Shown piece by piece: positions 8,916 through 64,000 of a stretch of DNA of 64,000 nt. The translations under genes and the position numbers were made by a program. How positions within the stretch are numbered: the stretch's first letter is position 1; every line of letters begins with the position of its first letter. Under the pieces are notes generated by a model. It was not told the DNA's origin, did no database searches, and saw nothing but the letters and a program-made list of their open reading frames with translations. This DNA comes from Candidatus Nomurabacteria bacterium (lineage in GTDB: Bacteria; Patescibacteriota; Minisyncoccia; Phycocordibacterales; UBA9973): positions 65,957-129,956 of the forward strand of contig JAPLXR010000007.1 in the NCBI GenBank assembly GCA_026395955.1, in the 5' to 3' direction.

Positions 8916-9106
8916 AAAATTTTTTGTTAATTAATAATCTTTTTTTAAAATATAAATTTTTCTAAAAAACCTATATTTTTCGTCAGTTATACACATTGCT
9001 AGAGGTCAGTAATACGCGGTATACTGTCCTCATAGTTGCGAAATTTTGTGACTAATATTATTATATACCTCCATACAAAAATTAGAAAATAAAAAACAAA
9101 AAATAA

Positions 9107-9652
9107 ATGAAAAAAAATATAAAAAATTATTTTAAATATGTAACCGGATTTATTTTTTGTTTTTTGCTTCGTTTAATTCCATTTCGTCCTCCAAACGTAG
9201 AACCAATCCTAGCTACAGCTATGCCGTTTTCAAAAGAATACGGAAAGCTAGCAGGATTTTTTTTCGGCTTCTTCAGTATTATCCTTTATGATGTCGCTAC
9301 AGCTAGAGTCGGAATGTGGACATTGATTACAGGAGTCGCTTATGGAGTTTTAGGACTAGTCGCAGCAGTTTATTTTGAAAATAAAAATAATACTTCATGG
9401 AATTATGCGAAATTCGCAATTCTGGCCACTATCTTCTATGACGCTGTGACAGGTTTGACTGTCGGTCCGATATTTTTTCACCAAAGTTTCATGACAGCAT
9501 TAGCAGGACAGATACCTTTCACTCTTCTACATCTAGTAAGTAATGTCGGTTTTGCAATTGTATTCTCTCCACTCATATATAGATACGTAATTGAAAATAA
9601 AAAGTTTGAACTATCATTATCAAAATTAATTTTAAATCCAAAACAAATATGA
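9107..9652 (+). CDS. small polytopic membrane protein, possibly a vitamin/cobalamin uptake component
   Basis: 181 aa with 5-6 predicted TM segments. Its stop overlaps the nrdJ start by 4 nt. The functional call rests on context only. Confidence 0.3.
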   Translation: MKKNIKNYFKYVTGFIFCFLLRLIPFRPPNVEPILATAMPFSKEYGKLAGFFFGFFSIILYDVATARVGMWTLITGVAYGVLGLVAAVYFENKNNTSWNYAKFAILATIFYDAVTGLTVGPIFFHQSFMTALAGQIPFTLLHLVSNVGFAIVFSPLIYRYVIENKKFELSLSKLILNPKQI

Positions 9653-12967: not shown

Positions 12968-13094
12968 TTTTTATAGTTTTTAAAATTCAGTTGTCTTTTC
13001 TTAAAAGTATCATTCTGAACTAAACATGTCAAATGATATAAATTTGCATAAAATGATGTGGGTAGTATACTGGTAATGTGCTTAACAAATTAAT

Positions 13095-13262
13095 AGTTTT
13101 GTAATTGGGGAAGTGAGGTGAGAATCCTCCACAGTGCCGCTACGGTAATCTAAATTTAATTTAGAAAGTCCGAATGCCAATTATGAATTTTGATACCCGA
13201 GCAGGAATTCCATATTTCATTTTTGAAACATGGTACGGTAACTCCTCTCTGTGGGAGTTTTT
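13095..13262 (+). promoter_or_regulatory. cobalamin (AdoCbl) riboswitch with terminator/SD-sequestering expression platform
   Basis: Core GGGGAAGTGAGGTGAGAATCCTCCACAGTGCCGCTACGGTAAT matches the conserved cobalamin riboswitch core (AGGGAAG..GGTGAGAATCC..C.GCC..GCTAC.GT.A). Hairpin actcc-tctctgt-gggagt plus T-run lies immediately before the start codon at 13266. Confidence 0.7.
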
Positions 13263-13265
13263 TTA

Positions 13266-13769
13266 ATGAAAAATTTAAATAAAAAATATATAATCATTCT
13301 TTTAATTATTGCTTTATTGGCCTTAAGATTTTTTATTGTTTATTTTAAACACCAAGACAAAATTACTGAAGTACAAAATATTGAAATTCCAAAAGTTATA
13401 GAGAAATCTACTCCAGAAATTCTAAAACAAATTCCTGTTACAAAAAATATTCCCAAAAATGAAACAATACCTTTAAATACAAATATTGTAACTATAAAGG
13501 TAGGGGATACAAATATAAATTTACCAATACAAAGTAATGCTAGTCTTTATGATGTTTTACTTGCAGGGCAAAAATCAGGACAGATAAATTTTACAGGAAA
13601 GAATTATTCAGGAATGGGATTTTTTATTAGTAGTATTGGGAATTTGAAAGAAGGATATGGGAAGTATTTAATTTATTATGTTAATGGCACAGAAGCGTCT
13701 GTCGGGATTTCTTCTTATGTACCAAAAGTAGGAGATATTATCGAGTGGAAACTTAGTACATCATTATAA
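13266..13769 (+). CDS. DUF4430-like (transcobalamin beta-domain-like) membrane-anchored protein
   Basis: N-terminal TM anchor. C-terminal domain with LYDVLLAG...GMGFFISSIGNLKEG...YLIYYVNGTEASVGISSYVPKVGDIIEWKL, which resembles DUF4430 proteins that accompany B12 transporters. The ORF-track start (13251, GTG) was replaced by the ATG at 13266. Confidence 0.5.
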   Translation: MKNLNKKYIIILLIIALLALRFFIVYFKHQDKITEVQNIEIPKVIEKSTPEILKQIPVTKNIPKNETIPLNTNIVTIKVGDTNINLPIQSNASLYDVLLAGQKSGQINFTGKNYSGMGFFISSIGNLKEGYGKYLIYYVNGTEASVGISSYVPKVGDIIEWKLSTSL

Positions 13770-13772
13770 TTT

Positions 13773-15740
13773 ATGAAAACAAAATTTTTAATATTTATTT
13801 TTGCAATAGTTTTATTTACGCCAGTATTTTTTGCTCGAGCAGATGTTTTACCTTTACCAGATGCATCTACTACTCCAGATATTATTCCACCACCAGATGC
13901 TTCTTCTACACCTATTCTCACTGAAAATATTTTAATACGTAACGGAGATACTGTTATTTTTCAAGGGTCAGTAGATTTACCAACAGCAGGGAATATCGAC
14001 ATTATGGATAATGCTAGTACTACGCACTCAGTAAATACTGACAGTGTTCTCGGTGTTTTATATTCTTTAGATCAAAATAATGATTCTTTTTCAATTTCAA
14101 ATCTACAATATTATGATTCTTTTGGAGCATTTTATTTAAAATGCATTACGAGCGTTAGTGAATCTTGTGATAATTGGCAATACGTCGTCGGAGGTACAAC
14201 ACCTTGGCAAAGTATCGATCAAACTATTTTGACTGGTGGAGAAAGTATCGGTATTTATTTTGGTACACCGTATAAAGTAGTTTTAAATAGTAATAACATT
14301 CATACGACCGATACTTTAAATGTTACCGCTGAAAAATATGATTATGAAAATAATGTTTGGAATCCGAGAACTGGTGTAACTGTTGGTCTAACTCAACCTG
14401 ATCCAAACAACCCTTGGAGTCCGATAGAAGTGCAAACTATTCCTGTTGATGCTAGTGGTGTCGCAACTTTTACAAATATTGGAGCTGGGAATTATAATGT
14501 CGGAATTCAAGAAGATTATTATTTTCCGACAGAATCTTTGACTGTATCTGCTCCTTTTGTTGATTGTGGTTGTGGTGGAGGAAATCCCGCTCCTGTTTTT
14601 AGCATTCCAAATGCAATTTCATATTTAGAAAGTGTTCAAAGTTCTGACGGATCTTTTGGAGACAGTGATATGTATACAGATTGGGCTAGTATTGCATTAT
14701 CAGCAAATGGAATTTCAAATAATATTAAAAATAAAATTTTAAGTTATATGTCAGCAGATAATTCTGTATCTGATAATCTTACAGACAATGAACGTCGTGC
14801 AATGGCGCTTCTTGCTTTAAATAAAAATCCATATGATTTTGGCAATGTAGATTATATTACTCCAATTATAAATTCTTTTGATGGAACACAATTCGGTGAT
14901 ACTAATTTAATCAATGATGATATTTTTGCACTTATTCCGCTTGCAAATACTGGCTATGATAATAGTGACGATATTATCAAAAAAGATATAGCTTATGTAA
15001 TTTCAAAACAAAAAATAAATGGTTCATGGGAAGAAAGTGTTGATATGACTTCTGCTAGTATTCTAGCCCTTGAAAATTATTCTAGTGTGTCTGGTGTAAA
15101 TTCTGCAATCTCTCTAGCAGAAAATTATTTAGAGAGTTCTCAGAAAAATGATGGTGGATGGGGAAATGTTTCAGCGACGAGCTGGGTATTACAAGCTGAA
15201 TCAATTTTAGGTACTAATTGGAGTAATAATGGAAAAACAGGAATTGATTATTTAGCAGATAATCAAGATACTGATGGTGGTGCGATAAAAAATACAGAAA
15301 TTTTACAAAATAGAATCTGGGCGACGAGTTATGCAATTCCAGGAGCACTAAACGAAACTTGGAATCAGATTTTTCATTCATTTCCAAAACCTACTAATCC
15401 TACAAATTTAACACAAACTTGTGAGACAGATCCTTCTTTGTGTACACCACCGATACAACCGACTTGTGAAACAAATATAACTCTTTGTCCTCCAAAATCA
15501 GTTCTTGCAGAAGAAAAACTAACTATAGTTCCAGTAGAAAATATTACACCTAAAGTAGTGTCTGTTAAAAAGGTTGAAAAAAAAATTGAACCAAAAATTC
15601 TTACCAAAGAAATATCAAAAATAGAACCTATAAATATCACTGCTACAGCAGGGAATAGTGATAGTAAAATATCCATGATTGTGTCTATTTTTTCTCTATT
15701 GGGCTTAATAGGACTAATGATATTTCGTTTTGTTATTTAG
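13773..15740 (+). CDS. secreted/surface protein with alpha/alpha-toroid QW (prenyltransferase/terpene-cyclase-like) repeats and C-terminal TM anchor
   Basis: Signal peptide, Pro/Thr-rich linkers, at least six repeats carrying Q..DG(S/G)(W/F)G-type motifs (e.g. SQKNDGGWGN, SSDGSFGD, INGSWEE), a Cys-rich C-terminal segment and a terminal hydrophobic anchor. Confidence 0.5.
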   Translation: MKTKFLIFIFAIVLFTPVFFARADVLPLPDASTTPDIIPPPDASSTPILTENILIRNGDTVIFQGSVDLPTAGNIDIMDNASTTHSVNTDSVLGVLYSLDQNNDSFSISNLQYYDSFGAFYLKCITSVSESCDNWQYVVGGTTPWQSIDQTILTGGESIGIYFGTPYKVVLNSNNIHTTDTLNVTAEKYDYENNVWNPRTGVTVGLTQPDPNNPWSPIEVQTIPVDASGVATFTNIGAGNYNVGIQEDYYFPTESLTVSAPFVDCGCGGGNPAPVFSIPNAISYLESVQSSDGSFGDSDMYTDWASIALSANGISNNIKNKILSYMSADNSVSDNLTDNERRAMALLALNKNPYDFGNVDYITPIINSFDGTQFGDTNLINDDIFALIPLANTGYDNSDDIIKKDIAYVISKQKINGSWEESVDMTSASILALENYSSVSGVNSAISLAENYLESSQKNDGGWGNVSATSWVLQAESILGTNWSNNGKTGIDYLADNQDTDGGAIKNTEILQNRIWATSYAIPGALNETWNQIFHSFPKPTNPTNLTQTCETDPSLCTPPIQPTCETNITLCPPKSVLAEEKLTIVPVENITPKVVSVKKVEKKIEPKILTKEISKIEPINITATAGNSDSKISMIVSIFSLLGLIGLMIFRFVI

Positions 15741-39432: not shown

Positions 39433-39714
39433 ATGAAAAAGAATTTTAATATACAGGCGAAGGTGTGGCGATGGCCAGGGGATGGGGGCTGGCATTTTGT
39501 GAATCTCGATCAAAAAGTCTCTAAATAAATTCGAGATGTGTATACTCGTGGTTTTGTAAAAGTATCTGCCATTATCGGACGCACGTCTTGGGATGCGTCA
39601 CTCTTGCCGAGTAAAAGGGACGCCAGCTATCTGCTCTGTGTCAAAAAACTCGTCCGCCAAAAAGAAGGAATTTTTGACGGCGATATGGTTAAAATTAAAT
39701 TTAAGATAAAGTAG
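39433..39714 (+). pseudogene. GC-rich DUF1905-like small protein gene interrupted by a single in-frame TAA (39526-39528)
   Basis: Not in the ORF track. Same-frame translation MKKNFNIQAKVWRWPGDGGWHFVNLDQKVSK*IRDVYTRGFVKVSAIIGRTSWDASLLPSKRDASYLLCVKKLVRQKEGIFDGDMVKIKFKIK. The W.WPG.GGW.FV.L...TSW..SL.P...G.YLLP.K motifs resemble the DUF1905 family. Composition is much more GC-rich than its flanks. Confidence 0.4.
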
Positions 39715-39819: not shown

Positions 39820-40983
39820 ATGAAATTAAAAGATACAGTTGATACAATTAAAATTTTTCCAAGTCATCCATTTCAAGACAAACTTTTTGAAGTTCTTGAA
39901 AGTGAAAGATTTAATTATGATATTGTTGCAGAAAAAATAAAAGAAACTTATTTATATACTCCACAACTAAAAGAAAATCGTTTTCAATTACAAAATAGAA
40001 GATATATAGGTTCAAAACATAAACTTATAGAATGGATCTTTTCTGTTATTAATAAAGAATGTAGAGGGACTTCTTTTGCTGATATTTTTGCTGGTACTGG
40101 AATTGTTTCTGCTATTGCAGCTAAGCATTTTGAAAAAATAACTATTAATGATTTTTTATACTCAAACTACGTAACTTATCAAGCCTTTTTTAGTAATAAT
40201 GATTGGGATTCTAATAAGATAGAAGGACTGATTAATTATTACAATAATATTGATGTTTTAAATTTGAAAGAAAATTACTTTTCTAAAAATTTTGGTGGAA
40301 AGTATTTTAGTCAAAAATCAGCAAAAATAATAGGATTTATAAGAGATAATATTGAAGAAATTAAGAAAACTCTTACAGATAGAGAATATTATATTTTACT
40401 TTCATCCTTACTTTATTCAATAGATAAGATTGCTAATACAGTTGGGCACTATGATGCATACTTTAAAAAAGATTCGTTGGAAGATAGGTTTATTTTAAAA
40501 TTAATAGACCCAATTAAGGTTGCTGATATTTCTATCTTTAAAGAAGATGCTAATATTCTAGTAAAGAAAATTAAAACAGATATTGCTTATATAGATCCAC
40601 CATATAATTCTAGACAATATAGTAGATTTTATCATGTTTTAGAAACTTTGATTAAATGGGATAAACCACTTTTGCATGGTGTTGCATTAAAACCTGAACC
40701 AGAAAATATGAGTGATTACTGTCGTGTGAGTGCAAGAGAAAAATTTGCAGAATTAATAAAAGACATAGATGCAAAGTATTTAGTTGTTTCCTATAATAAT
40801 ACTTATGATTCAAAAAGTCATTCTTCTCAAAATAAGATTAATTTACAAGAAATAAAAGATATTTTAAACCAAAAAGGTAAGACTAAAGTTTTTGAAAAAG
40901 ATTATAGACATTTTAATGCTGGTAATACAGATTTTAATAATCACAAAGAATATCTTTTTGTTACTGAAGTAAATCATGTCTAA
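39820..40983 (+). CDS. N6-adenine DNA methyltransferase, D12 (Dam) class
   Basis: YIGSKHKL (Dam YxGxK motif), FADIFAGTG (FxGxG SAM-binding) and DPPY catalytic motif. Confidence 0.7.
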   Translation: MKLKDTVDTIKIFPSHPFQDKLFEVLESERFNYDIVAEKIKETYLYTPQLKENRFQLQNRRYIGSKHKLIEWIFSVINKECRGTSFADIFAGTGIVSAIAAKHFEKITINDFLYSNYVTYQAFFSNNDWDSNKIEGLINYYNNIDVLNLKENYFSKNFGGKYFSQKSAKIIGFIRDNIEEIKKTLTDREYYILLSSLLYSIDKIANTVGHYDAYFKKDSLEDRFILKLIDPIKVADISIFKEDANILVKKIKTDIAYIDPPYNSRQYSRFYHVLETLIKWDKPLLHGVALKPEPENMSDYCRVSAREKFAELIKDIDAKYLVVSYNNTYDSKSHSSQNKINLQEIKDILNQKGKTKVFEKDYRHFNAGNTDFNNHKEYLFVTEVNHV

Positions 40984-41887
40984 AAAAATTAAAAGATCAC
41001 CTTTATTTTATGTTGGTGATAAATATAAGTTAATGAGTCAAATATCTGAGCTTTTTCCTATAAAAATTAATAATTTTTATGAGCCATTTACTGGTGGAGG
41101 AACAGTTTTTTTGAATATAGAAGCAAATAACTATTATTTAAATGATATTGATAAAAATTTAATTGATATTCATAATTTTTTAATGAAAAGTTCAAGTAAT
41201 TCAAAAAAGTTTTTCAGAAATGTTGGAAACATAATAAAACAATTTAATTTATCAAAATCTTATGAAAAAGACATTATCTCTGTTTCTTTAAGAAAAACTT
41301 GGTTAAAAACATACTTTGCAAAATTTAATAAAGTTGGGTATGAAAAAATAAAAAAAATAGTAAATTTAAGTAAAAAAAAAGACCCCTTAATGCTATACAT
41401 ATTACTTATATATGGTTTTAACAGAATGCTACGTTTTAATAGTAGCGGTGACTTTAACTTACCTGTTGGGAATGTTGATTTTAATAAAAATGTTTTTAAG
41501 GCATTAAATGAATATTTTGACTTTGTGAAAAATAAAAAGATATATTTTACCTCTTTAGATTTTAAGGAGTTTTTTATGAAGAAAAATTATAAAAAAGATG
41601 ATTTTGTTTATTTAGATCCTCCTTATCTAATAACATCAAGTGAATATAATAAATTATGGAACAGTAAATCAGAATCTGATTTACTTGAAACTATTGATCA
41701 ATTAGATAAAAAAGGAGTTAAATTTGCACTATCTAATGTAACTCATTATAATGGCCGCAAAAATAATTTTTTGATAAAATGGATGAAAAAGTATAAAGTA
41801 CATAAAGTAACTAGCAATTATATTAGTTATCATAATAATTCAACTAAAAATATTAAAGAAGTTTTAATAACAAATTATGACAAATAA
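40976..41887 (+). CDS. second N6-adenine DNA methyltransferase, D12 (Dam) class
   Basis: FYVGDKYKL, FYEPFTGGGTVFL and YLDPPY motifs. Overlaps the upstream MTase gene by 8 nt. Confidence 0.7.
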   Translation: MSKKIKRSPLFYVGDKYKLMSQISELFPIKINNFYEPFTGGGTVFLNIEANNYYLNDIDKNLIDIHNFLMKSSSNSKKFFRNVGNIIKQFNLSKSYEKDIISVSLRKTWLKTYFAKFNKVGYEKIKKIVNLSKKKDPLMLYILLIYGFNRMLRFNSSGDFNLPVGNVDFNKNVFKALNEYFDFVKNKKIYFTSLDFKEFFMKKNYKKDDFVYLDPPYLITSSEYNKLWNSKSESDLLETIDQLDKKGVKFALSNVTHYNGRKNNFLIKWMKKYKVHKVTSNYISYHNNSTKNIKEVLITNYDK

Positions 41888-43454
41888 AGGCAAAAAAAGA
41901 AGATCAGAATATAAGCAAGTACAGTTTGAAACTGCTGTAAGAAATCCAGACAGGTATATATCTATACTTCGTTCGATAAAGAATTATGATGGTTGCATTT
42001 TAAATGATGATATCCTGTTGGAAATTGTATCTAATTTATATTTATTGGGTGAATTTTCTAGTGACGAGATAAATATTTCTGAAAATACAAATTTAAAAGA
42101 CATTACTGATTTAGTTATCAAAGTAAACTCCACAAGAAATGGTGATGGAGGTTTTCCTAAAGGGTATGCTTCTCGTTTTTGGACTTATATGAGAACACCT
42201 TCAGAGCTTGGAATGATTTACGCTCGTTATAATGAACCACTTTTATTTTCTGAAGTATCTAAAATGCTTTTAGCTGGTGTTATTGATGAACAAGAGGCTT
42301 TTTCTGTTCAAGAAATGAAATGTAACAGAAGATCACCATATAAAAATGTTAGTAATGATTTTAATTTTTTTAAATTAGTTTTAAATACATTATCATATTT
42401 ACATGATAAAGGTAAGCAGCTTAGTTTTGAACAATTTATTGTTCTAATGTTCAACCAAAGTGGAAATATAAATGAAACAATTGAACTGCTTTTAGAGAAT
42501 AAATTCCCAACTGAAGAAAGTGTCTATAATTTTGTAAACGAACACTACTCAAATACTCTTAAACCTAGTACTGTATTAAGAGACTACCCTGATGTCACAA
42601 GAAGACTAATGATAATTTCTGGTTTTATAACTATAAAATATAAAGGTATCAAATTTATAGAAATAAATGAAGATAAGTTAGATTACATAAAAGAATTATT
42701 ATCTGTTGAGTTTTCTTTAACAGAAGATGAAAAGATAGATGCTAAAAAGTACTTTTTAAAATTAGGGACATTTGACGATAAATATTTTAATATCGTAAAG
42801 AAATATAGAGTAATTGATAAAATAGACGGAAAAGGATATACAAATAAACTTGTTTCTTTAATTAAAGAGTATAGAATAACTGAAAATAATATTATAGAAG
42901 GAATACATAAAATTTATGAAAGAAATAATCCAATACACCCTGAATTTGATATAATACCTCCACCTCTTAGGCTAGAATTTTTCCTGTCTATTTTAATAGT
43001 ACTAAAATATGAAAAAGAATTTAATATAAGGCCAAATTATAAGGCTGATCATTTAGGTAAGCCATATTCTCATGCACCAGGTAATAACGGAGACATTGAT
43101 ATATATTCTAATGAAATATATTGGTTACTTGAGGTTACCCTTATCCGTACAAAACAACAGTTGCTTAATAATGAAACAAGCACTCTTATAAGACATCTAA
43201 ATGAAACTGAAGAATTTAAAAATTACCAAAAGAAATATTTATCATTAGTAGCACCAATAATACATCAAGATACAGAAAATTATTTTCGTATTTCTTTAAT
43301 TGATAATCAAATGTTAGATAAAAAACTTAGCATAAAGCCATATAATATAATCAATTTTATTGATGTTACTTTAAAAAAGAACAATTTTTTTGATATGGAA
43401 AGCCATTCAAGTAGAATCTTTGAAGATTTTAAATCCAAAATTAATTTAAATTAG
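41877..43454 (+). CDS. candidate restriction endonuclease of the two-methyltransferase (Type IIS-like) R-M cassette
   Basis: 525 aa. Overlaps the second MTase gene by 11 nt. The C-terminal region has a possible PD-(D/E)xK-like arrangement (GDIDIY...LLEVTLIRTK). The assignment rests mainly on context. Confidence 0.3.
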   Translation: MTNKGKKRRSEYKQVQFETAVRNPDRYISILRSIKNYDGCILNDDILLEIVSNLYLLGEFSSDEINISENTNLKDITDLVIKVNSTRNGDGGFPKGYASRFWTYMRTPSELGMIYARYNEPLLFSEVSKMLLAGVIDEQEAFSVQEMKCNRRSPYKNVSNDFNFFKLVLNTLSYLHDKGKQLSFEQFIVLMFNQSGNINETIELLLENKFPTEESVYNFVNEHYSNTLKPSTVLRDYPDVTRRLMIISGFITIKYKGIKFIEINEDKLDYIKELLSVEFSLTEDEKIDAKKYFLKLGTFDDKYFNIVKKYRVIDKIDGKGYTNKLVSLIKEYRITENNIIEGIHKIYERNNPIHPEFDIIPPPLRLEFFLSILIVLKYEKEFNIRPNYKADHLGKPYSHAPGNNGDIDIYSNEIYWLLEVTLIRTKQQLLNNETSTLIRHLNETEEFKNYQKKYLSLVAPIIHQDTENYFRISLIDNQMLDKKLSIKPYNIINFIDVTLKKNNFFDMESHSSRIFEDFKSKINLN

Positions 43455-43497
43455 TTTTGATAGTTTTTCTTTTTAGTTAGGAGTATTATTAATAAAT

Positions 43498-44235
43498 ATG
43501 AATACATTTAAACAAGCAGCAGTTGAAATATTAAAAAAATCAAAAGAACCATTACATTATAGTGAAATAACTAGATTGGCCTTAGAATCAGGTATTTTAG
43601 AAACCGAAGGTGCTACACCTGAGGCTTCAATGATTGCTCAGATTACAGTTGATATTAAAAATAAAAAAAGTGGTTCAGATTTTGTTAAAACTGCTCCTGG
43701 TGTTTTTGCTTTAAATAAAAATAAAAAAGAAATAAAACAAACAGTTAAAATAATCGAAGCAGAAAAAGAAGAAGAAGAAAAGATAATAGTAGAAGGAGGG
43801 TATACAGGAAAGGCAGGCGAACATTTGGTTTGTAGTGAATTAATCTTTCGTGGTTTCAATGCAAGTATAATGAGTGTAGATGTAGGGATGGATATTGTTG
43901 CTGTAAAAGAAAATCAGTTATATGGAATTCAAGTTAAGACATCAAATCTTAATAAATTTGACACATATATTTTTGATGTAAGAAAGGTCTCTTTTGAGAG
44001 ACATAGTACAAGTAATATTTATTATATATTTGTTTTACATAGTCTTACAAAAAATAATTATTTAATTCTACCATTTCACGAAATGGAGAAAAAAATGCAC
44101 GATGGTGCAATATTAGAAATATTAAATGGTAAAAAATATAGAGTAAATATTAAGTTTAGAAATGACAAAGTTTATTTAGGAACTATGAATCATGAAATGG
44201 GTTATTTTTTAAATAATTGGAGTATTATAAAATAA
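43498..44235 (+). CDS. HARE-HTH domain protein fused to a restriction-endonuclease-like (PD-(D/E)xK) domain
   Basis: The N-terminus (FKQAAVEILKKSKEPLHYSEITRLALESGILETEGATPEASMIAQITVDIKN...FVKTAPGVFAL) matches the HARE-HTH pattern found in RNAP delta and restriction enzymes. The C-terminus has D...VD.GMDIVAV...GIQVKT, an acidic/lysine arrangement consistent with a PD-(D/E)xK core. Confidence 0.4.
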   Translation: MNTFKQAAVEILKKSKEPLHYSEITRLALESGILETEGATPEASMIAQITVDIKNKKSGSDFVKTAPGVFALNKNKKEIKQTVKIIEAEKEEEEKIIVEGGYTGKAGEHLVCSELIFRGFNASIMSVDVGMDIVAVKENQLYGIQVKTSNLNKFDTYIFDVRKVSFERHSTSNIYYIFVLHSLTKNNYLILPFHEMEKKMHDGAILEILNGKKYRVNIKFRNDKVYLGTMNHEMGYFLNNWSIIK

Positions 44236-44242
44236 ATTATTA

Positions 44243-44506
44243 ATGACAAACAAATACGAACAAAAAGCCGAAATAGAAATAGATTTACATGGATATACAA
44301 TGCTTGAAGCAGGGGAGGTTTTGGATGCTTTGTTTAGAGAGATGAAATACAAACATGTCCGCATCATCACTGGTAAAGGCAAGAATAGTGAGAATGGTCC
44401 CGTCTTGCCGAACTTTGTGCGAAACTATTTGAATTCCCGCGGGGTACATTACAATCAATCCAAACTTCAATCCGGCGGCTCCGGCGCCCTCGAAGTTTTC
44501 CTTTAG
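44243..44506 (+). CDS. standalone Smr (small MutS-related) domain protein
   Basis: 87 aa. IDLHGYTMLEA...VRIITGKGKNSENGPVL is the Smr nuclease-domain signature. The 3' half is GC-rich. Confidence 0.6.
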   Translation: MTNKYEQKAEIEIDLHGYTMLEAGEVLDALFREMKYKHVRIITGKGKNSENGPVLPNFVRNYLNSRGVHYNQSKLQSGGSGALEVFL

Positions 44507-44507
44507 T

Positions 44508-44533
44508 TAACATCCTTACATACTGGAGTTTGT
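44508..44533. repeat. 26-nt direct repeat copy A (taacatccttacatactggagtttgt), upstream of the ArsR-family gene
   Basis: An identical 26-mer recurs at 44856-44881. Each copy continues into its own hairpin. Confidence 0.7.
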
Positions 44534-44558
44534 CAGTATGTCGTAATATAATATAAAT

Positions 44559-44849
44559 ATGACAAAATTAAAAACTGCAAAACAAATGGAGCGACACTTG
44601 AAAGGCATGTCAAACCATCATCGTATTGAGATTTTATTATTAATAGGAAAACAAAATGGTATCACTCTCGATCAGATTATTAATTCACTCGATGCTAACC
44701 CAAAGACAATAGGTGAGCATACTCGTCGTCTATGTGTCGCTGGTTTGGTAAATAAAAAGTACAAAGGCCGATTTGTAGAGCATTCATTGTCTCCATATGG
44801 AAAGACTTTTTATAATTTTCTCAAAGCATTTCAAAACCTCGCTCAATAA
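44559..44849 (+). CDS. ArsR/SmtB-family winged-HTH transcriptional regulator
   Basis: 96 aa. HHRIEILLLIGKQNGITLDQIINSLDANPKTIGEHTRRLCVAGLV follows the ArsR HTH pattern. Confidence 0.6.
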   Translation: MTKLKTAKQMERHLKGMSNHHRIEILLLIGKQNGITLDQIINSLDANPKTIGEHTRRLCVAGLVNKKYKGRFVEHSLSPYGKTFYNFLKAFQNLAQ

Positions 44850-44855
44850 CTTTAA

Positions 44856-44881
44856 TAACATCCTTACATACTGGAGTTTGT
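44856..44881. repeat. 26-nt direct repeat copy B, downstream of the ArsR-family gene; extends into the 11-bp-arm hairpin aacatccttac...gtaaggatgtt (44857-44890)
   Basis: Exact repeat of 44508-44533. Confidence 0.7.
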
Positions 44882-44901
44882 AAGGATGTTGAAATTACAT
44901 A

Positions 44902-45153
44902 ATGTATTATTTATATATTTTAAAATGTGCGGATCAGAGTTTGTATACTGGTATCACGACGGATCTGAAACGTCGGGTAGCGGAGCATAATGGTGAGAAG
45001 GGAAATAAACTCGGTGCGAAGTATACGAGCAGTCGCCGTCCGGTGGAGGTGGTGTATTCGAGGAGGTTTAAGAATCGGTCGAATGCGAGTAAAGAAGAAT
45101 CTAGAATTAAAAGTTTGAATAGGGAAGAGAAACTGAAACTTATCAAAGCATGA
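44902..45153 (+). CDS. GIY-YIG nuclease domain protein (UPF0213/YhbQ-like)
   Basis: 83 aa. YYLYILKCADQSLYTGITTDLKRRVAEHN is the GIY-YIG signature. Confidence 0.6.
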   Translation: MYYLYILKCADQSLYTGITTDLKRRVAEHNGEKGNKLGAKYTSSRRPVEVVYSRRFKNRSNASKEESRIKSLNREEKLKLIKA

Positions 45154-45165
45154 TAAAATACGTAA

Positions 45166-45693
45166 ATGGATTTTAGTTATACTTTAAAAATGAATAGGCG
45201 GACGCGCGGAGTGCGGATCAGTGTCGACGCGGGTGGAGAGGTGGTGGTGACTAGGTCACCTAGGATTTCCGTCGCACAAGTGGAAAGCCTCGTCGCAAAA
45301 AGGGCAGACTGGATACGAGAGAAGATAACAGAGATGGAAAAACGGCCAAAGAAAATACTCGCTCATTTTAGCGTAAAAGAATATAAAGAATTTAAAGAAA
45401 AAGCTCGAGAGCAGGTGGCAGAGAGGATACAAGTATTGAATCAAAAATATAAATTTGAAATAGGGAACATAGCTATACGAAATCAAAAGACGAGGTGGGG
45501 AAGTTGTAGTGGGAAAAAGAATTTGAATTTTAATTACAAAATATTTTTCTTGCCACCAGAACTCACCGACTATATCATCGTGCACGAGCTATGTCATTTG
45601 CGAGAGATGAATCATTCCAAAAGGTTTTGGGACTTGGTAGCTATACAAGTGCCGAATCATAAAGAATGTCGAAAGCAAATACAATTATATTAA
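45166..45693 (+). CDS. YgjP-like (DUF45/M48-related) metal-dependent hydrolase
   Basis: HELCHLREMNHSKRFW zinc-binding HExxH...H motif at the C-terminus, as in the YgjP family that often accompanies restriction systems. Confidence 0.65.
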   Translation: MDFSYTLKMNRRTRGVRISVDAGGEVVVTRSPRISVAQVESLVAKRADWIREKITEMEKRPKKILAHFSVKEYKEFKEKAREQVAERIQVLNQKYKFEIGNIAIRNQKTRWGSCSGKKNLNFNYKIFFLPPELTDYIIVHELCHLREMNHSKRFWDLVAIQVPNHKECRKQIQLY

Positions 45694-45710: not shown

Positions 45711-46190
45711 ATGAATACACATACACATCCGATAGTGGGGCATATACATCTAACAGTTTCTGACCTTGATCGAGCACTTTTGTTTTATAGAGACTTGCTC
45801 GGTTTTGAAGTTTCTGCGCGTTATGGAGATAGTGCAGTTTTTCTCTCTAGTGGTGGGTATCATCACCATATCGGATTAAATACTTGGGCAGGCAAGGGTG
45901 CAACGCCAGCACCTATGGGACACACTGGTATGTATCATGTCGCATTTTTGTATCCGACGAGGAAAGCTCTCGCTATTGTTTTGAAAAAATTAATCGACGC
46001 AGGATATCCACTCGAAGGTTCTGCTGATCATGGAGTCTCCGAAGCAATATATTTACGTGACCCAGACAACAACGGAGTCGAGATTTATGTCGATCGTCCG
46101 AAAGAAACTTGGAAAGTTTCAAATGATGGGATGGTAGAAATGGTAACAGAAGTTTTAAACATCGAAGACTTGCTAAAAGAGCTTGCATAA
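45711..46190 (+). CDS. VOC (glyoxalase/bleomycin-resistance/dioxygenase) family protein
   Basis: GHIHLTVSDLDRALLFYRDLLGFEV, two beta-alpha-beta-beta-beta modules. Confidence 0.65.
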   Translation: MNTHTHPIVGHIHLTVSDLDRALLFYRDLLGFEVSARYGDSAVFLSSGGYHHHIGLNTWAGKGATPAPMGHTGMYHVAFLYPTRKALAIVLKKLIDAGYPLEGSADHGVSEAIYLRDPDNNGVEIYVDRPKETWKVSNDGMVEMVTEVLNIEDLLKELA

Positions 46191-47606: not shown

Positions 47607-50600
47607 ATGGAAGAAAAAAATAACACAAATAAATCAGAAGTAGCACTTCGCGAAGAAATAGTTTTAGAATTTTGGAAAGAAAACAAAATTTTTGAACAAA
47701 CAATAAATAAAAAAGAAAATCCAAAAGGCGATTATATATTTTTTGATGGTCCACCGACTGCAAATGGTATGCCTGGACTTCATCATATGGAAGCTCAATC
47801 TTTCAAAGATGTTATGCCTCGCTATAAAACGATGCAAGGTTTTCGTGTTCCTAGAAAAGCCGGATGGGACACACATGGTCTTCCTGTAGAATTACAAGTT
47901 GAAAAAGCACTCGGCTTAAAATCAAAAAAAGAAATTGAACAATACGGAGTAGAAGCTTTTAATCAAAAGTGTAAAGAAAGTGTTTGGAAATACAGAGATG
48001 AATGGATAAAACTACGTCAACGTATGGGTTATTGGGTTGATATGGATAATGCTTATGTAACATATAAAAATGATTATATCGAAGCGTTGTGGTCAGTTGT
48101 ATCAAAAGCAAATGATCGCGGACATTTATATAAAGATTTTAAAGTCCTTCCATGGTGTACACGTTGCGGAACCGCACTTTCAAGTCATGAACTTTCTCAG
48201 CCTGGTGCATATAAAGATGTGAAAGATCTTTCCGTGTATGTGAAATTTAAAATAAAAGGTTTTGAAAATGGATACTTTTTAGCTTGGACGACGACACCTT
48301 GGACTTTGCCTGGGAACGTCGGACTCGCTGTCGGTAATGATTTTATATACGTTGAGGCAAAAGTCGGTAATGATATTTTAGTTGTTGCAAAAGAAAGATT
48401 AGAAATAATTACTGAACCATATGAAATAATAGCAGAACATAAAGGTAGTGAAATGATCGGTATGGAATACGAACCGCTCTTTCCATATTTGAAAAATAAT
48501 ATCGAAAGTGAAGTGCCGACACAAATAGAAAATCTAAAAAATGCATTTAAAATTTACGGTGCAGATTTCGTGACAACGATAGATGGTACAGGGATAGTGC
48601 ATACAGCGGTAATGTATGGAGCGGACGACTTTGACCTCGGTACAAAAGTTAATTTACCTAAATATCATACAGTAAACGAAGAGGGAAGATTTGTCGCAGG
48701 AACCGATTTCCTCGAAGGACGATATGTGAAAGAAGTAGATGAGAATGGTAAGCCCACACTCGCTGTAGATATAATAGATAATCTAACTAGTCGTGGACTT
48801 TTGTTTAAAAAAGAAAATCACATGCACAGTTATCCGCATTGTTGGCGTTGTGATACACCTCTCATTTATTATGCGAGAACTTCTTGGTATTTCCGTATGA
48901 GTGCACTTCGTGATCAACTCCTAGCAGGAAATGAAAATATAAATTGGGAACCAAAACATATAAAAGAAGGACGTTTTGGCGAATGGCTCGATGGTATCAA
49001 GGACTGGGCTATTTCTCGTGATCGTTATTGGGGAACGCCGTTACCTATCTGGCAGAAAGCTGATGGAAGTTATAAAACTATTTCATCTCTTTCAGATTTG
49101 AAAAAATATACAAAGAAATCTGGAAATAAATATTTCATAATGCGTCACGGCGAGACAGAAGCAAATAAAAAAGGAATCATTTGTTCACTGCCTTCTGGTA
49201 AATGGCATCTAGATGAAGATGGAAAGAGACAAGTAAATGAAACAGCTGAAAAATATAAAGATCAAAAAATTGATTTGATTTTCACTTCAGATTTTACTCG
49301 TACACAAGAAACCGCAGAAATAATGGCTGACAAACTCGGATTGAAATCTGAACAAGTTATCATAGATCAGAGGCTTCGTGAAATAGGTGCTTATTCTTTT
49401 GATGGAAAAGGTTGGGACGAATATCATGCATTTCATACAAAGACAGTTGAGAATTTCAACAGACGTGTGAATGATGATGAATCATATGAAGATGTAAAAA
49501 TTCGCATCACTTCTTTCCTTTATGAAATAGAAGAAAAATACCAAGGTAAAAATATTTTATTTGTAACTCATGGTGGACCTGCATGGTTGCTCTTTGCTGG
49601 GGCAGAAGGAAAGTCTCCGAAAGAAACACTAGATATGATAATAGATAAAAAAGATTATCATTATTTCCAAAATGCAGAAATAAAAGAATTAAACTTTACT
49701 CCATTACCACATAATAAAAATTATGAATTAGATTTTCATAAACCATATATCGATGAAGTTGCATTAGAAGATAATGGCGAAACGCTTACTCGTACATCAG
49801 AGGTGATGGATGTGTGGTTCGATTCTGGTGCGATGCCTTATGCCCAAGACCATATACTAGGAGAAGAAGTGGACTTTACTCCAGCAAGGGCTGACTTTAT
49901 TTCTGAAGGGCTCGACCAGACTCGTGGTTGGTTTTATACTTTGCACGCAGTTTCAAATTTACTTTCAGATAAACCAAGTAATGCGTACAACAATGTCATC
50001 TGCCTCGGACTTATCCTCGATGCAAATGGTCAAAAAATGTCAAAGTCTCGTGGTAACGTCGTTGATCCATGGATGATGTTTGAAAAATATGGAGCAGACA
50101 CTATTCGTCTCTGGATGTATTCTGTGAATCAGCCAGGGGAGTCAAAGAATTTCGATGAGCGAACAGTGATGGAACTTCATAGGCAAGTTTTCGGACTTCT
50201 ATATAACGTAGTTTCTTTTTATGAATTGTATAGAGATAAAAATTTAGAAAATGAAACACCAGAAGAGAGTCAAAATGTACTAGATATTTGGATTCTTGCA
50301 AGACTAAATGAATTAACAAAAAATGTTACAGAAAATTTGAATGGCTATAAAACACTCGAACCAGTGCGTGCTATTCGTGATTTCATCGATGATTTATCTA
50401 CATGGTATCTACGTCGTTCACGTGAGAGAATCAAAGAAGGATCTTTCATTTCAAAGATTACTTTGTATTATGTTTTAAAAAACCTAACGAAGCTTATGGC
50501 GCCATTTGCACCATTTGCTAGTGAAGATATTTATCGAAAATTAAGAAATGAAAATGAGCCAGAATCTGTGCACCTTTGTGATTGGCCTAAATATACTGAA

Positions 50601-51089
50601 ATAAATAATAAAGTTATAGAAGAAATGCAAAGTGTTAGAAATAATGTTTCTCTAGGCTTGAAAGATCGTCAGAAAGCAGGTCTCCCTGTGCGTCAGCCAT
50701 TGTCTGAGTTAAAAATAAAAGGAGCAAAACTTGGCGAGGAATACATTGAACTTATTAAAGATGAAGTAAATATAAAATCAGTAATTTTCGATGAAAGTAT
50801 TGAAATGGAAACAATCTTGAATACAGAAATAACTCCAGAATTAAAAGAAGAAGGGAACTATCGTGAACTCGTTCGTGCTATTCAAGACATGCGTAAAAAA
50901 GCAGGACTTACTCCTTCAGATATTATTTCTCTTTCTATAGAAACTGATGAAATAGGAAAATCTCTAGTTCAAAAATTCGAAGCTGATTTCAAGAAAACTA
51001 TTCTAATAAATGAAGTAAAATTTGAAAATAATTCAGGTGAGGAAATAAAAGTAGATGCTTTAAACTTTAAAGTTAGCATCATTAAGTAA
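47607..51089 (+). CDS. ileS: isoleucyl-tRNA synthetase with an internal ~200-aa histidine-phosphatase (PGAM-like) domain insertion
   Basis: HIGH-region PPTANGMPGLHHM, editing domain, KMSKS (KMSKSRGN). Between PLPIWQ and HKPYIDEV lies an inserted segment (aa ~501-710; nt ~49107-49736) with an RHGETEAN motif, TSDFTRTQETAE and a second His in FVTHGGP. These are the histidine phosphatase superfamily signatures. Confidence 0.9.
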   Translation: MEEKNNTNKSEVALREEIVLEFWKENKIFEQTINKKENPKGDYIFFDGPPTANGMPGLHHMEAQSFKDVMPRYKTMQGFRVPRKAGWDTHGLPVELQVEKALGLKSKKEIEQYGVEAFNQKCKESVWKYRDEWIKLRQRMGYWVDMDNAYVTYKNDYIEALWSVVSKANDRGHLYKDFKVLPWCTRCGTALSSHELSQPGAYKDVKDLSVYVKFKIKGFENGYFLAWTTTPWTLPGNVGLAVGNDFIYVEAKVGNDILVVAKERLEIITEPYEIIAEHKGSEMIGMEYEPLFPYLKNNIESEVPTQIENLKNAFKIYGADFVTTIDGTGIVHTAVMYGADDFDLGTKVNLPKYHTVNEEGRFVAGTDFLEGRYVKEVDENGKPTLAVDIIDNLTSRGLLFKKENHMHSYPHCWRCDTPLIYYARTSWYFRMSALRDQLLAGNENINWEPKHIKEGRFGEWLDGIKDWAISRDRYWGTPLPIWQKADGSYKTISSLSDLKKYTKKSGNKYFIMRHGETEANKKGIICSLPSGKWHLDEDGKRQVNETAEKYKDQKIDLIFTSDFTRTQETAEIMADKLGLKSEQVIIDQRLREIGAYSFDGKGWDEYHAFHTKTVENFNRRVNDDESYEDVKIRITSFLYEIEEKYQGKNILFVTHGGPAWLLFAGAEGKSPKETLDMIIDKKDYHYFQNAEIKELNFTPLPHNKNYELDFHKPYIDEVALEDNGETLTRTSEVMDVWFDSGAMPYAQDHILGEEVDFTPARADFISEGLDQTRGWFYTLHAVSNLLSDKPSNAYNNVICLGLILDANGQKMSKSRGNVVDPWMMFEKYGADTIRLWMYSVNQPGESKNFDERTVMELHRQVFGLLYNVVSFYELYRDKNLENETPEESQNVLDIWILARLNELTKNVTENLNGYKTLEPVRAIRDFIDDLSTWYLRRSRERIKEGSFISKITLYYVLKNLTKLMAPFAPFASEDIYRKLRNENEPESVHLCDWPKYTEINNKVIEEMQSVRNNVSLGLKDRQKAGLPVRQPLSELKIKGAKLGEEYIELIKDEVNIKSVIFDESIEMETILNTEITPELKEEGNYRELVRAIQDMRKKAGLTPSDIISLSIETDEIGKSLVQKFEADFKKTILINEVKFENNSGEEIKVDALNFKVSIIK

Positions 51090-59783: not shown

Positions 59784-59790
59784 AATTTGC

Positions 59791-59878
59791 GGAGCCGGAC
59801 GGATTCGAACCGTCGAGGGGTTTTGAAGCCCCTGCCTCTTTAGCAAAGAGGTACGTTAGACCACTCTGACACGGCTCC
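59791..59878 (-). tRNA. tRNA-Ser (anticodon GCT), type II
   Basis: Reverse complement GGAGCCG...anticodon stem-loop CCTCT-TTGCTAA-AGAGG...long variable arm...GACGG-TTCGAATC-CGTC-CGGCTCC-G. Confidence 0.75.
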
Positions 59879-59962: not shown

Positions 59963-60052
59963 GGAGGCGTGGATGAGTGGTTTAAATCAACGGTTTACTA
60001 AACCGTCGTCCTTTAATCGGGACCGTGAGTTCGAATCTCACCGCCTCCGCCA
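59963..60052 (+). tRNA. type II tRNA (Ser-like architecture) with anticodon loop TTACTAA (anticodon ACT), encoded CCA
   Basis: Acceptor GGAGGCG/CGCCTCC, 3-bp D-stem GAT/ATC with GAGTGGTTTAA loop, anticodon stem ACGGT/ACCGT, long variable arm, T-arm GTGAG-TTCGAAT-CTCAC, discriminator G + CCA. The loop differs from the Ser-GCT loop TTGCTAA by G34->A. Confidence 0.5.
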
Positions 60053-61152: not shown

Positions 61153-62478
61153 CTAATCGATGAGCGTCAGCACCTTATCCTTGTACACAATCTTGCTCCG
61201 CAGGTTCGCCAGTAATTCTCGCTTCTCCGTAACTGCACCCTCTTTTAGTATGTACTTCGCATAGTTTCGTATGTCGGTATCCTTTCTGTTTCCAACCTTG
61301 TCTGTGCTTCCAAAAACCGATCTTTGGAAGATGTTGAATCTCGCTATTTCTTCCTCAAGCTTCTGCCTCATACCAAGCTCGTTAATGTTCACCTTGTCGA
61401 GTATCTTCAGTATCTCGATGATCAGATCTTCTTCTCGGATGTATTGATTCTTGCAGTTCCTGTCCCTCGATCTCGCACATGAGTAGTAGATGTACTTTGC
61501 ATGCGTGCCGTCTTTCAGTTGCTTCCATTTTTCCTCGGCAGATATTCCAGAGCCACAGTATCCGCAGGTGAATAGTTTTGTGAATGCGAATTCTTTGTTT
61601 TCTCTTTGTATATTGTCTCGCTTCAGTTGTGATTGTGCCTGATCGTGCAGTTCCTTTGTTATGAGCGGTTCATGCTTTCCCTGATACCAGTTACCGCTGT
61701 CTTTAGGATACTCGAACATGCCGTAGTAGAAGGGGCTTTCCAATATTCTGTACACACCGCCGAGCGTGAGTGGTTTGTTTCCTCGGGTATAAAAATTGGC
61801 TTCGAATCGAAGCCAATTGTATATCTTTCTTCCGCTCAGTTTCTCGTACGCCACCCGCTCGAACATTTTCTTCACCAGCGGTGCTCTGAGTTCATCCACC
61901 ACAAGCTGACATTTCTTGTCGATATCTCTCTGATTCAGATATCCGAGAGGTGCGACTCCTGGCCATAGTCCCATCTCCACTCTCGTTCGCAGTCCTCGCT
62001 TTACGTTAATTCCTCGATTGTCGTTCTCAAGCTTTGCTTGTGATCCGAGAATCATCAGCAAGAATTTCTCGTTCGGATTGTTACCGAACTTCTGTCCGAA
62101 GGTTCTTATTTCCTGAAGCTTACCTGCATCCATCAGGTCCACAATTCTTCCAAGATCTCCTGCATTTCTTGAAATACGGTCTGGTGCCCATGTCAGGATG
62201 CCGTTGAATTTTCCATCCCTCAGTTCCTCGATGATCTCGTTGAAGACTGGTCGCTGTCCCGTTTCCTTTGCCGAATGGCTTTCTCGCTTCATCGTGACCA
62301 CCTCAAGACCCTCACGGTCTGCTAGTTGGAGCATTTCCTTGATCTGGCTATCAATACTCAATACTTGCCGTTCTTCGCTTTCGGTCGACTTTCTGGCATA
62401 CAGGCAATACTTCACCTTTACCTCAGCTATTGTCCCTCTGGCCGTCATGGCCCCTGGCATTTGATCTGTTGTCTTCAT
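61153..62478 (-). CDS. large serine recombinase (resolvase/invertase catalytic domain + recombinase domain + zinc-ribbon)
   Basis: N-terminal YARKSTESEERQVLSIDSQ serine-recombinase catalytic motif, a central recombinase domain and a Cys-rich segment (CGYCGSG...C..C). 441 aa. Confidence 0.75.
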   Translation of the reverse strand: MKTTDQMPGAMTARGTIAEVKVKYCLYARKSTESEERQVLSIDSQIKEMLQLADREGLEVVTMKRESHSAKETGQRPVFNEIIEELRDGKFNGILTWAPDRISRNAGDLGRIVDLMDAGKLQEIRTFGQKFGNNPNEKFLLMILGSQAKLENDNRGINVKRGLRTRVEMGLWPGVAPLGYLNQRDIDKKCQLVVDELRAPLVKKMFERVAYEKLSGRKIYNWLRFEANFYTRGNKPLTLGGVYRILESPFYYGMFEYPKDSGNWYQGKHEPLITKELHDQAQSQLKRDNIQRENKEFAFTKLFTCGYCGSGISAEEKWKQLKDGTHAKYIYYSCARSRDRNCKNQYIREEDLIIEILKILDKVNINELGMRQKLEEEIARFNIFQRSVFGSTDKVGNRKDTDIRNYAKYILKEGAVTEKRELLANLRSKIVYKDKVLTLID

Positions 62479-63051: not shown

Positions 63052-63134
63052 CCAAGAACGGATATTTAAAAGAAAACAAGAGATTCAAAAAACCATTATC
63101 AACGCAAGCTTTACCAACTTAACCAAGAACTAAT

Positions 63135-64000
63135 ATGACTAACAAAAAATACACACAAGAAGACCTCAACAAAATCCTCTGGGAAGCAGCGGATTCTTCT
63201 CGTACACAAGTAGACGCGGGAATCTATAAAGACTACGTGCTTGCGATTCTTTTCTTTAAGTACTTGAGTGACCTCTCAAAGAAAAAACGAAACGAGTACA
63301 AGGAACGTTTTGGTAACGACGAAAAGCGTACCGAAGAAAAAATGAAGCTCGACCGCTTCTATCTCCCTCCGAAGTCATCATTCGATTATATCTACTCAAT
63401 TATTGAACAGGACAATCTCGGTGAAGAAATAAACAAATCTCTCCATCGCATTGAGGATGCCAACAAGGAAAAGCTTGATGGCGTATTTTCTGTGGACTTC
63501 AACTCCGAATCAACACTTGGAAAACTTACAGAGCGAAACAAGATGCTCCGCCACCTCATACAGGACTTTGCGAAGATGGATCTTGCTGATGTGAACGATG
63601 ACATCATCGGAAACTCCTACATGTACATGATCGAACGCTTTGGAGCTGATGCAGGTAAAAAAGCTGGCGAGTTCTTCACTGTTCGCAATGTTGCAAAGCT
63701 TGTCGCTAAACTCGCAGAACCAAAGCCAGGTGCTCGTATCTGCGATCCTTGTACGGGGTCTGGTGGACTTCTTCTCCTTGCTGGTGAAGAAGTGGAAAAA
63801 CAAGGTTCAAAAAACTACGCTCTCTACGGTCAGGAATCAACAGGTTCAACCTATCAGCTCGCTCGTATGAACATGTTTCTCCACGGAAAAGATTCAGCAC
63901 GAATCGAATGGGGCGACACACTCAACAACCCACTTCTTGTAGAAAATGATCATTTGATGAAATTCGACACGATCGTTGCCAACCCGCCATTCTCTCTCAA
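63135..64000 (+). CDS. hsdM: type I restriction-modification N6-adenine methyltransferase subunit HsdM (partial, runs off window end)
   Basis: Not in the ORF track (no stop within the window). Translation from the ATG at 63135 gives the HsdM N-domain (KILWEAADSSRTQVDAGIYKDYVLAILFFKYLSD), motif I DPCTGSGGLL and motif IV NPPF. Confidence 0.8.
   Translation, partial: MTNKKYTQEDLNKILWEAADSSRTQVDAGIYKDYVLAILFFKYLSDLSKKKRNEYKERFGNDEKRTEEKMKLDRFYLPPKSSFDYIYSIIEQDNLGEEINKSLHRIEDANKEKLDGVFSVDFNSESTLGKLTERNKMLRHLIQDFAKMDLADVNDDIIGNSYMYMIERFGADAGKKAGEFFTVRNVAKLVAKLAEPKPGARICDPCTGSGGLLLLAGEEVEKQGSKNYALYGQESTGSTYQLARMNMFLHGKDSARIEWGDTLNNPLLVENDHLMKFDTIVANPPFSL

Follow-up and report, generated by a model that had tools for sequence, protein, structure and literature searches.

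Four small genes follow one another on the same strand between positions 43498 and 45153 of a 64,000-nucleotide stretch of a Candidatus Nomurabacteria genome (contig JAPLXR010000007.1), which is called the window below. They encode a HARE-HTH protein with a nuclease domain of the PD-(D/E)xK type (gene 1, the HARE nuclease), a stand-alone Smr domain (gene 2), an ArsR-like winged helix-turn-helix regulator (gene 3, wHTH) and a GIY-YIG protein (gene 4), and they lie directly downstream of restriction-modification (R-M) genes. The question raised by this locus is whether these genes form a single uncharacterised immunity or toxin-antitoxin-like module, as was proposed from the letters alone, or whether they are neighbours with separate histories. 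The comparative analysis reported here points to the latter. The 1.66-kb stretch is probably a junction of independently inherited blocks and not one system, with the HARE nuclease belonging to the R-M operon that precedes it.

The genes themselves are well described by that sequence-only reading. The four open reading frames (ORFs) were recovered with the same coordinates, + strand and lengths, and the domain calls were upheld by Pfam, with E values of 1.2e-16 for HARE-HTH, 7.3e-13 for Smr and 6e-15 for GIY-YIG, the PD-(D/E)xK and ArsR matches being weak. The spacers between successive genes are 7, 52 and 52 nt long. It is their grouping that did not hold, since a HARE nuclease, an Smr protein and a GIY-YIG protein placed under an ArsR-type repressor were not seen to co-occur across unrelated genomes. 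The full set of four is only found in near-identical contigs (L002 and L092, the L numbers denoting the loci compared). Near the HARE nuclease in about 85 other loci, an Smr gene is adjacent once (L087), a wHTH gene is likewise adjacent once (L037) and a GIY-YIG gene lies near once (L043). The picture is similar when the search is centred on the wHTH gene: among 84 such loci, the HARE nuclease is found in none, Smr is adjacent in five, GIY-YIG follows directly or at a short distance in about six, and YgjP, the gene that follows the quartet in the window, occurs in one.

The idea of one immunity or toxin-antitoxin-like module, made of the four genes and YgjP, in which the ArsR-type protein would repress the nucleases through two palindromes, is not without appeal. 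The genes follow each other closely on a single strand and no terminator is predicted in between, one palindrome is located upstream of the wHTH gene and the other upstream of GIY-YIG, the order Smr-wHTH-GIY-YIG-YgjP is retained in L092 at 88% DNA identity, and the pairs Smr-wHTH (five loci) and wHTH with a downstream GIY-YIG (about six) do recur. Such a module is nevertheless very improbable, and it is largely refuted by the comparative data. In addition to the counts given above, the presence of the downstream palindrome does not depend on the gene behind it (its downstream neighbours form 55 clusters), and the breakpoints of composition and synteny fall inside the supposed module. No PADLOC model provides more than a marginal match either, in line with the earlier remark that no named defence system fits. 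PADLOC recognises only the R-M genes, its marginal matches being to CARF/Csx1/Csa3-type models (E 0.003-0.0065 for gene 1, best E 5.7e-7 for the wHTH gene); no PADLOC-DB model matched Smr, GIY-YIG or YgjP, and no NCBIfam family was found for the HARE, GIY-YIG or YgjP proteins. A false lead is thereby removed, namely that of a new four-nuclease defence system at this locus.

The genomic surroundings of the HARE nuclease were compared in 80 genome loci, mostly from Patescibacteria, and in five metagenome contexts. The other genome loci belong to Bacteroidota (including the cultured Deminuibacter soli), Gammaproteobacteria, Actinobacteria, Omnitrophota, Thermoanaerobaculia and one Woesearchaeon. 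In nearly all of these roughly 85 loci, a gene on the same strand lies directly upstream, usually spaced by -29 to +30 nt; in the window, the HARE gene begins 43 nt past an AlwI-family endonuclease gene. The direct upstream neighbours (n=76) include ResIII/HsdR (16), D12 methyltransferase (7), HsdS (7) and N6_Mtase/Eco57I (6), as well as AlwI, TaqI_C and MmeI. Using home-made profiles, an R-M gene was detected within 6 kb upstream, on the same strand as HARE, in 53 of 71 loci, against 6 downstream. The methyltransferases recognised upstream all belong to amino-methyltransferase classes (HsdM, D12, N6_N4 and one Dam-like), whereas the m5C (5-methylcytosine) class gave only two matches near HARE, both of them downstream. 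Some of the remaining loci have a Dam-like methyltransferase, DUF6602 or ThsB-TIR in place of R-M genes. On the other side, the 70 genes directly downstream are spread over 81 Pfam families, none of which is dominant. The partner also changes between close homologues: a 92%-identical HARE (L086) follows DpnII and AIPR genes, and an 87%-identical one (L087) follows D12/N6_N4 methyltransferases, the DNA homology of L087 to the window being restricted to the HARE ORF (43494-44235). Across these loci, the HARE gene almost always closes an amino-methyltransferase R-M operon as its last same-strand gene; it is an accessory terminal gene of the upstream R-M operon and not part of the quartet. Bacteroidota homologues with 60-62% identity (L060, L044 and L069) likewise follow hsdM/hsdS genes, and L060, whose protein is 61% identical, comes from the cultured strain Deminuibacter soli K23C18032701 (NZ_QTJU01000001.1), which is a tractable host.

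The limits of the blocks could be traced through base composition and synteny. A partly GC-shifted patch had been noticed at the outset, and the GC content at third codon positions (GC3; window median 0.23, sd 0.08) shows where the shift occurs. It is 0.11-0.17 for the R-M and HARE genes (methyltransferase A 0.11, methyltransferase B 0.15, AlwI-family endonuclease 0.165, HARE 0.138) versus 0.41-0.47 for Smr (0.466), GIY-YIG (0.429) and YgjP (0.409), the wHTH gene having a value of 0.278. The step from 0.138 to 0.466 is located exactly at the HARE/Smr junction. Locus L088 is 88% identical to the window in DNA over 44227-44891 only, a segment that comprises Smr, wHTH and both palindromes; its homology starts at the HARE/Smr junction and ends at palindrome copy 2, and beyond these limits HARE is replaced by an RNase H gene and GIY-YIG by yjdM. 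In L091, the wHTH-GIY-YIG pair stands amid housekeeping genes. The homology of L092 covers 44223-45693 and then jumps to 46197, the glyoxalase/VOC-fold gene being missing from that 88%-identical contig, so that close relatives differ in whether they carry it. A DUF1905 gene immediately before the R-M cassette is broken by an in-frame TAA in its translation; its GC3 of 0.44 is near the Smr, GIY-YIG and YgjP values, and L177 carries an intact DUF1905 gene 0.8 kb downstream of Smr. The GC3 step, the synteny breaks in L088, L091 and L092, and the position and GC3 of DUF1905 suggest that the DUF1905 gene and Smr were separated by the insertion of the R-M and HARE cassette. A search for insertion scars round the R-M cassette gave only shared AT-rich octamers, which are not meaningful. 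Upstream of Smr in L088, positions 5190-9683 encode PemK, a MazG-like protein, an SLFN-like helicase fused to an S24 peptidase, an uncharacterised 252-aa protein and a 259-aa RNase H-domain protein, this stretch being possibly another defence-type cassette that occupies the equivalent position.

Three blocks would thus meet at this locus. The first (about 39.8-44.24 kb) looks like an AT-rich R-M operon of a Type IIS-like kind, acquired horizontally, with the HARE nuclease as its last gene. The second (44.24-44.89 kb) would comprise an Smr nicking nuclease that stands alone and the wHTH gene as a self-contained regulator unit, and the third the UPF0213 GIY-YIG and YgjP genes, then VOC. High GC3 is the common trait of the second and third blocks and of the probable DUF1905 pseudogene (39.4-39.7 kb). 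It had also been suggested that the locus might be a graveyard of mobile-element remnants; separately acquired pieces do fit the data, but remnants do not, the four genes being intact. The R-M part of the first block resembles the AlwI and N.BstNBI-type Type IIS systems, as it combines an AlwI-family endonuclease with two adenine-methyltransferase activities, one per strand. It differs from them in that the methyltransferases are two separate genes, A and B, which overlap by 8 nt in the window, and in that an extra HARE-HTH nuclease gene is appended. The link between YgjP and restriction systems, which had been put forward as frequent, could be seen in two places: YgjP homologues are flanked by hsdR and HARE in L005, and stand beside EcoRI-methylase and GmrSD genes in L178.

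The HARE nuclease belongs to a large and well-conserved family. Its HARE-HTH domain (Pfam PF05066) covers residues 3-72, with an E value of 1.4e-17 when the domain is searched alone. The AlphaFold model (pLDDT 72) places a PD-(D/E)xK domain after residue ~100, and none of the residues E108, D128, D132, Q145 and K147 varies among 25 sequences of the family. The D...QxK signature resembles one described for Mrr (PMC11037411). The HARE alignment profile gave no match among PDB sequences, and the best PDB fold matches of the model are I-Ssp6803I, archaeal Hjc and the SPARDA nuclease domain. I-Ssp6803I (2ost) and Hjc (4tkd, 2wcw) align with residues ~100-245 (Foldseek E 2e-4 to 1e-3, probability 1.0), but their sequence identity to gene 1 is only 12-18%, and they have neither a HARE-HTH domain nor an R-M context. 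There are 812 homologues, of which the best 120 are almost all 245 aa long and 69-92% identical, and a profile search of 1.8 billion cluster representatives returned 3298 matches at E <= 1e-3. Architectural variants (P0129, P0126, P0150, P0132) include proteins with two HARE-HTH domains and a nuclease, and stand-alone 155-aa nuclease domains; the 748-aa P0129 has six tandem HARE-HTH domains followed by Mrr_cat (8.6e-23).

Relatives of this architecture have been described before. According to a passage of Iyer et al. (PMC4738411) that refers to Aravind & Iyer 2012, prokaryotic HARE-HTH domains are fused to endonuclease domains serving N6-adenine R-M systems. A HARE-HTH-REase (restriction endonuclease) gene has also been located directly downstream of Dnd modification genes, where it was proposed to discriminate modification (Burroughs et al., PMC10853773). 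Gene 1 is a further member of the class predicted computationally in 2012. Like the R-M-linked HARE-HTH-REase fusions, it has an N-terminal HARE-HTH and a C-terminal restriction-endonuclease fold, and it is found directly downstream of DNA-modification genes, with almost only amino-methyltransferases as neighbours. It differs from them by a compact, near-constant size of 245 aa and an Hjc/I-Ssp6803I-like nuclease with no clear Mrr_cat; its subfamily, mostly from Patescibacteria, is moreover unusually conserved (46-92% identity across phyla). Another comparison is with the Type IV, modification-dependent enzyme Mrr of E. coli K-12, which likewise consists of a winged-helix reader followed by a PD-(D/E)xK domain with D...QxK, and is also R-M-linked, the K-12 mrr gene adjoining the Type I hsdRMS locus. 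In contrast to Mrr, gene 1 has no Mrr_N or Mrr_cat match and shares an operon with R-M genes.

A working model can be proposed on this basis. The HARE nuclease would be co-expressed with the R-M genes, its HARE-HTH domain would read DNA, probably its adenine-methylation state, and its Hjc/I-Ssp6803I-like PD-(D/E)xK domain (E108, D128/D132, Q145-x-K147) would cut it. A second, modification-sensing and Mrr-like cleavage would in this way be added to whichever amino-methyltransferase R-M system precedes. We infer this mechanism from the domain architecture, the conserved residues, the gene context and the literature. In human ASXL1, too, the domain that reads DNA is a HARE-HTH, and this ASXL1 domain bound DNA containing N6-methyladenine (6mA) in pull-downs (Kweon et al., PMC6591016). 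The state of the DNA targeted by the bacterial HARE nuclease would bear both on R-M biology and on the disputed sensing of 6mA by HARE-HTH.

Several observations weigh against this model and against the division into blocks. The nuclease part of gene 1 is only weakly recognised by Pfam (PDDEXK_5, 9.4e-4, under the curated cut-off), and among the Mrr models Mrr_cat_2 is found at E 0.076 whereas Mrr_cat and Mrr_N give no match. HARE-HTH may sense cytosine modification instead (Helbrecht et al., PMC11037411). A cutter dependent on methyl-adenine, encoded beside adenine methyltransferases, risks self-restriction unless the specificities differ. As to the block boundary, Smr starts 7 nt past the HARE stop codon with no predicted terminator, and is probably co-transcribed with HARE in the window; the HARE-Smr adjacency is found again in L087, behind a different R-M system. 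Smr also stands beside R-M or defence genes in L177 and L178, and a loose link of the small genes to defence islands may still exist.

Two other explanations of how the locus was assembled were weighed. In the first one, the HARE nuclease would be a selfish homing-type endonuclease, a single-ORF cassette lodging at the 3' ends of R-M operons with no defence benefit for the host. Its best fold match is indeed the PD-(D/E)xK homing endonuclease I-Ssp6803I. The identity of 46-92% extends across Patescibacteria, Bacteroidota, Proteobacteria, Actinobacteria, Omnitrophota and an archaeon, with R-M partners of differing types, the DNA homology with L087 does not go beyond the HARE ORF, and large serine recombinases are present in 17 of 71 HARE loci. 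However, each locus has a single HARE copy, neither an intron or intein context nor a target-site signature was found at the HARE loci, and the gene is nearly absent from viral contigs (three loci only) and absent from the plasmid and phage collections searched. The near-constant length of 245 aa, the steady same-strand position and the overlaps or short gaps look more like operon integration under purifying selection, so that a homing origin appears quite improbable.

The second explanation concerns the receiving site. Smr, wHTH and YgjP might mark a recombination hotspot in these Paceibacteria genomes, which would repeatedly receive defence cassettes. Differing defence genes do abut this set: AlwI R-M genes and HARE in the window, D12/N6_N4 methyltransferases and HARE in L087, Type IIG, DpnI-like and DUF2726 genes in L177, EcoRI-methylase and GmrSD in L178, PemK and the SLFN-like helicase in L088. 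Smr, GIY-YIG and YgjP are themselves GC3 outliers. On the other hand, Smr or wHTH occurs in plain housekeeping surroundings in L175/L176, L180 and L091, the sample is small and partly biased since some loci were found through HARE, and R-M genes are frequent anyway in the sampled loci. A hotspot is for these reasons considered improbable, and a junction of separately inherited blocks, with the HARE nuclease as part of the R-M operon, is retained.

The wHTH gene of the second block appears to be a unit in its own right. The protein lies below the curated cut-offs of the known families, with E 6e-4 and 20.0 bits against Pfam HTH_5 (cut-off 22), and 31.8 bits against the NCBIfam ArsR/SmtB model NF033788 (cut-off 55). 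Its profile retrieves HlyU, CadC and ArsR from the PDB at E 1e-4 to 1e-2, and 1422 homologues were collected, the best 120 of them with 71-98% identity. The sequence-only reading had described an ArsR-like gene flanked by a repeat, which is quite correct: a 25-nt exact match is present at 44509 and 44857, with 0 expected by chance. The repeat was then followed through 85 wHTH loci (including L088-L171). A palindrome of ~34 nt lies upstream of the gene in 85/85 of them, with the consensus AACATCCTTACA-AACT(G/T)GAG(TT/AA)-TGTAAGGATGTT. Past it by a few bases comes a TATAAT-like box, and ~6 nt separate this box from the ATG (85/85 loci). Because the ATG is only ~6 nt past this box, a leaderless wHTH mRNA is suggested. 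A second palindrome copy stands at or just past the wHTH stop codon in at least 75 of the 85 loci, and most of the others overlap the end of the coding sequence. The flanking genes are diverse, those of the two sides forming 55 and 56 clusters. No Rfam family was found for this palindrome unit, an Rfam scan over 44200-45200 gave no match at E <= 1, and no description of the unit was found in the literature.

Since the upstream palindrome abuts the promoter, the wHTH protein most likely represses its own gene, the palindrome being a putative operator that is copied at the 3' end of the gene. Such an arrangement recalls the ArsR/SmtB regulators (HlyU, CadC, ArsR), which are likewise winged-helix proteins of ~100 aa with an inverted-repeat site by their own promoter. 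The differences lie in the scores below the family cut-offs, in the lack of obvious metal-site residues, in the long ~11-10-11 palindrome bracketing the gene on both sides, and in the probably leaderless mRNA. The main rival to the operator reading is that the palindromes act as RNA hairpins, terminators or insulators, which would isolate the wHTH gene. Each copy keeps its internal complementarity even where the two copies differ in their arms (for example in L099). The arms also covary: 89.5% of the cells pair, and 75 double-change cells were counted versus 30.6 +/- 4.5 after shuffling, none of the 500 shuffles being as high. Copy 2 folds with a stability of -17.5 kcal/mol (z = -4.3), and T runs follow several of the downstream copies. 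Conversely, the loop ACT(G/T)GAG and the spaced arm positions A5, C8, A11 and A13 are invariant, a constraint that a plain terminator does not need. The mismatch cells, compared in order to tell an RNA hairpin from a DNA operator, show only a small excess of G·T (70) over A·C (51), and a strand-specific RNA signal is not clear from them. The upstream copy directly adjoins the -10 box, where operators are classically located, and no Rfam family matches the palindrome. The hairpin reading is consequently regarded as rather unlikely, and the putative operator is preferred. The wHTH unit provides a simple regulatory element in Patescibacteria, a group with very little known gene regulation.

The two remaining small genes were compared with known families. 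The Smr protein shows the DLHG and TGKG motifs in its translation (the DxH and GxG motifs being present), which it shares with Smr-domain nucleases such as E. coli SmrB and the MutS2 C-terminal domain. It is nevertheless a bare 87-aa domain, without the N-terminal ribosome-binding extension of SmrB or the KOW, MutS and ATPase modules, and the NCBIfam MutS2/SmrA matches are weak (23 bits versus a cut-off of 400, and 19 versus 180). No PDB sequence match was obtained for it. Its 73 homologues are mostly 84-99 aa long (range 47-111), the named ones coming from Nomurabacteria or Parcubacteria, and their contexts vary, being of the housekeeping type in L175/L176 and L180, with R-M or GmrSD genes alongside in L177 and L178. 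Gene 4 has the same size and the same core as the UPF0213/YhbQ-type stand-alone GIY-YIG proteins, from which it shows no notable difference; its PDB sequence matches are 1ywl (EF2693, E 7.7e-15) and 1zg2 (BH0048, E 5.8e-13).

Taken together, the locus may hold two wider stories. In a tentative joint reading, which we hold to be possible but on the doubtful side, the HARE nuclease would be a universal plug-in R-M effector, and the palindrome-wHTH-palindrome unit an undescribed, self-insulated cassette widespread in Paceibacteria-type Patescibacteria. The nuclease would then be a part attached to the 3' end of Type I, II and IIS amino-methyltransferase operons in more than 10 phyla. If this is true, it would provide methylation-state-sensing restriction, or a safeguard for it, and would represent an undescribed class of R-M accessory.

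Table 1. Positions in the window of the four genes, the two palindromes and the neighbouring genes.
Feature	Positions	Strand	Length	Matches and remarks
DUF1905, probable pseudogene	39433-39714	+		Pfam DUF1905 1.4e-11 on 3' part; TAA 39526-39528
N6-adenine methyltransferase A, D12 class	39820-40983	+		Pfam MethyltransfD12 1e-37; PADLOC MTase_II 3e-135
N6-adenine methyltransferase B, D12 class	40976-41887	+		Pfam 1.7e-30; PADLOC 1.5e-105
AlwI-family restriction endonuclease	41877-43454	+		Pfam RE_AlwI 5.6e-47; PADLOC REase_II 1.8e-36
Gene 1, HARE-HTH + PD-(D/E)xK	43498-44235	+	245 aa	
Gene 2, stand-alone Smr	44243-44506	+	87 aa	
Palindrome copy 1	44508-44541	+		Followed by TATAAT box; ATG 6 nt past box
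Gene 3, ArsR/HlyU-like winged-helix (wHTH)	44559-44849	+	96 aa	
Palindrome copy 2	44856-44890	+		13-bp perfect hairpin; begins 7 nt past wHTH stop codon
Gene 4, UPF0213 (YhbQ-type) GIY-YIG	44902-45153	+	83 aa	
YgjP-like zinc metallohydrolase	45166-45693	+		Pfam 9.3e-43
Glyoxalase/VOC-fold protein	45711-46190	+		Pfam 1.6e-16

A few other features of the window deserve mention. A large serine recombinase is encoded at 61153-62478 (- strand), with the top GC3 of the window (0.54); after it a Type I hsdM gene begins (63123-64000, + strand), which is cut by the window end. Homologues of the recombinase are those counted above in HARE loci; in L003, one of them, with 60% identity, lies directly beside HARE. 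The isoleucyl-tRNA synthetase (47607-51089, + strand, 1160 aa) has an inserted His_Phos_1 domain at residues 510-680 (E 9e-35), and such a histidine-phosphatase insertion is unusual for a class I synthetase. ARAGORN predicts a tRNA-Ser with anticodon ACT at 59963-60052 (+ strand), divergent from a tRNA-Ser(GCT) at 59789-59878 (- strand), an A at position 34 being unusual in a Ser tRNA. Finally, an AdoCbl-II cobalamin riboswitch was detected at 13090-13187 (+ strand; 45.4 bits, the gathering score being 36.5), in front of the genes at 13251-15740.

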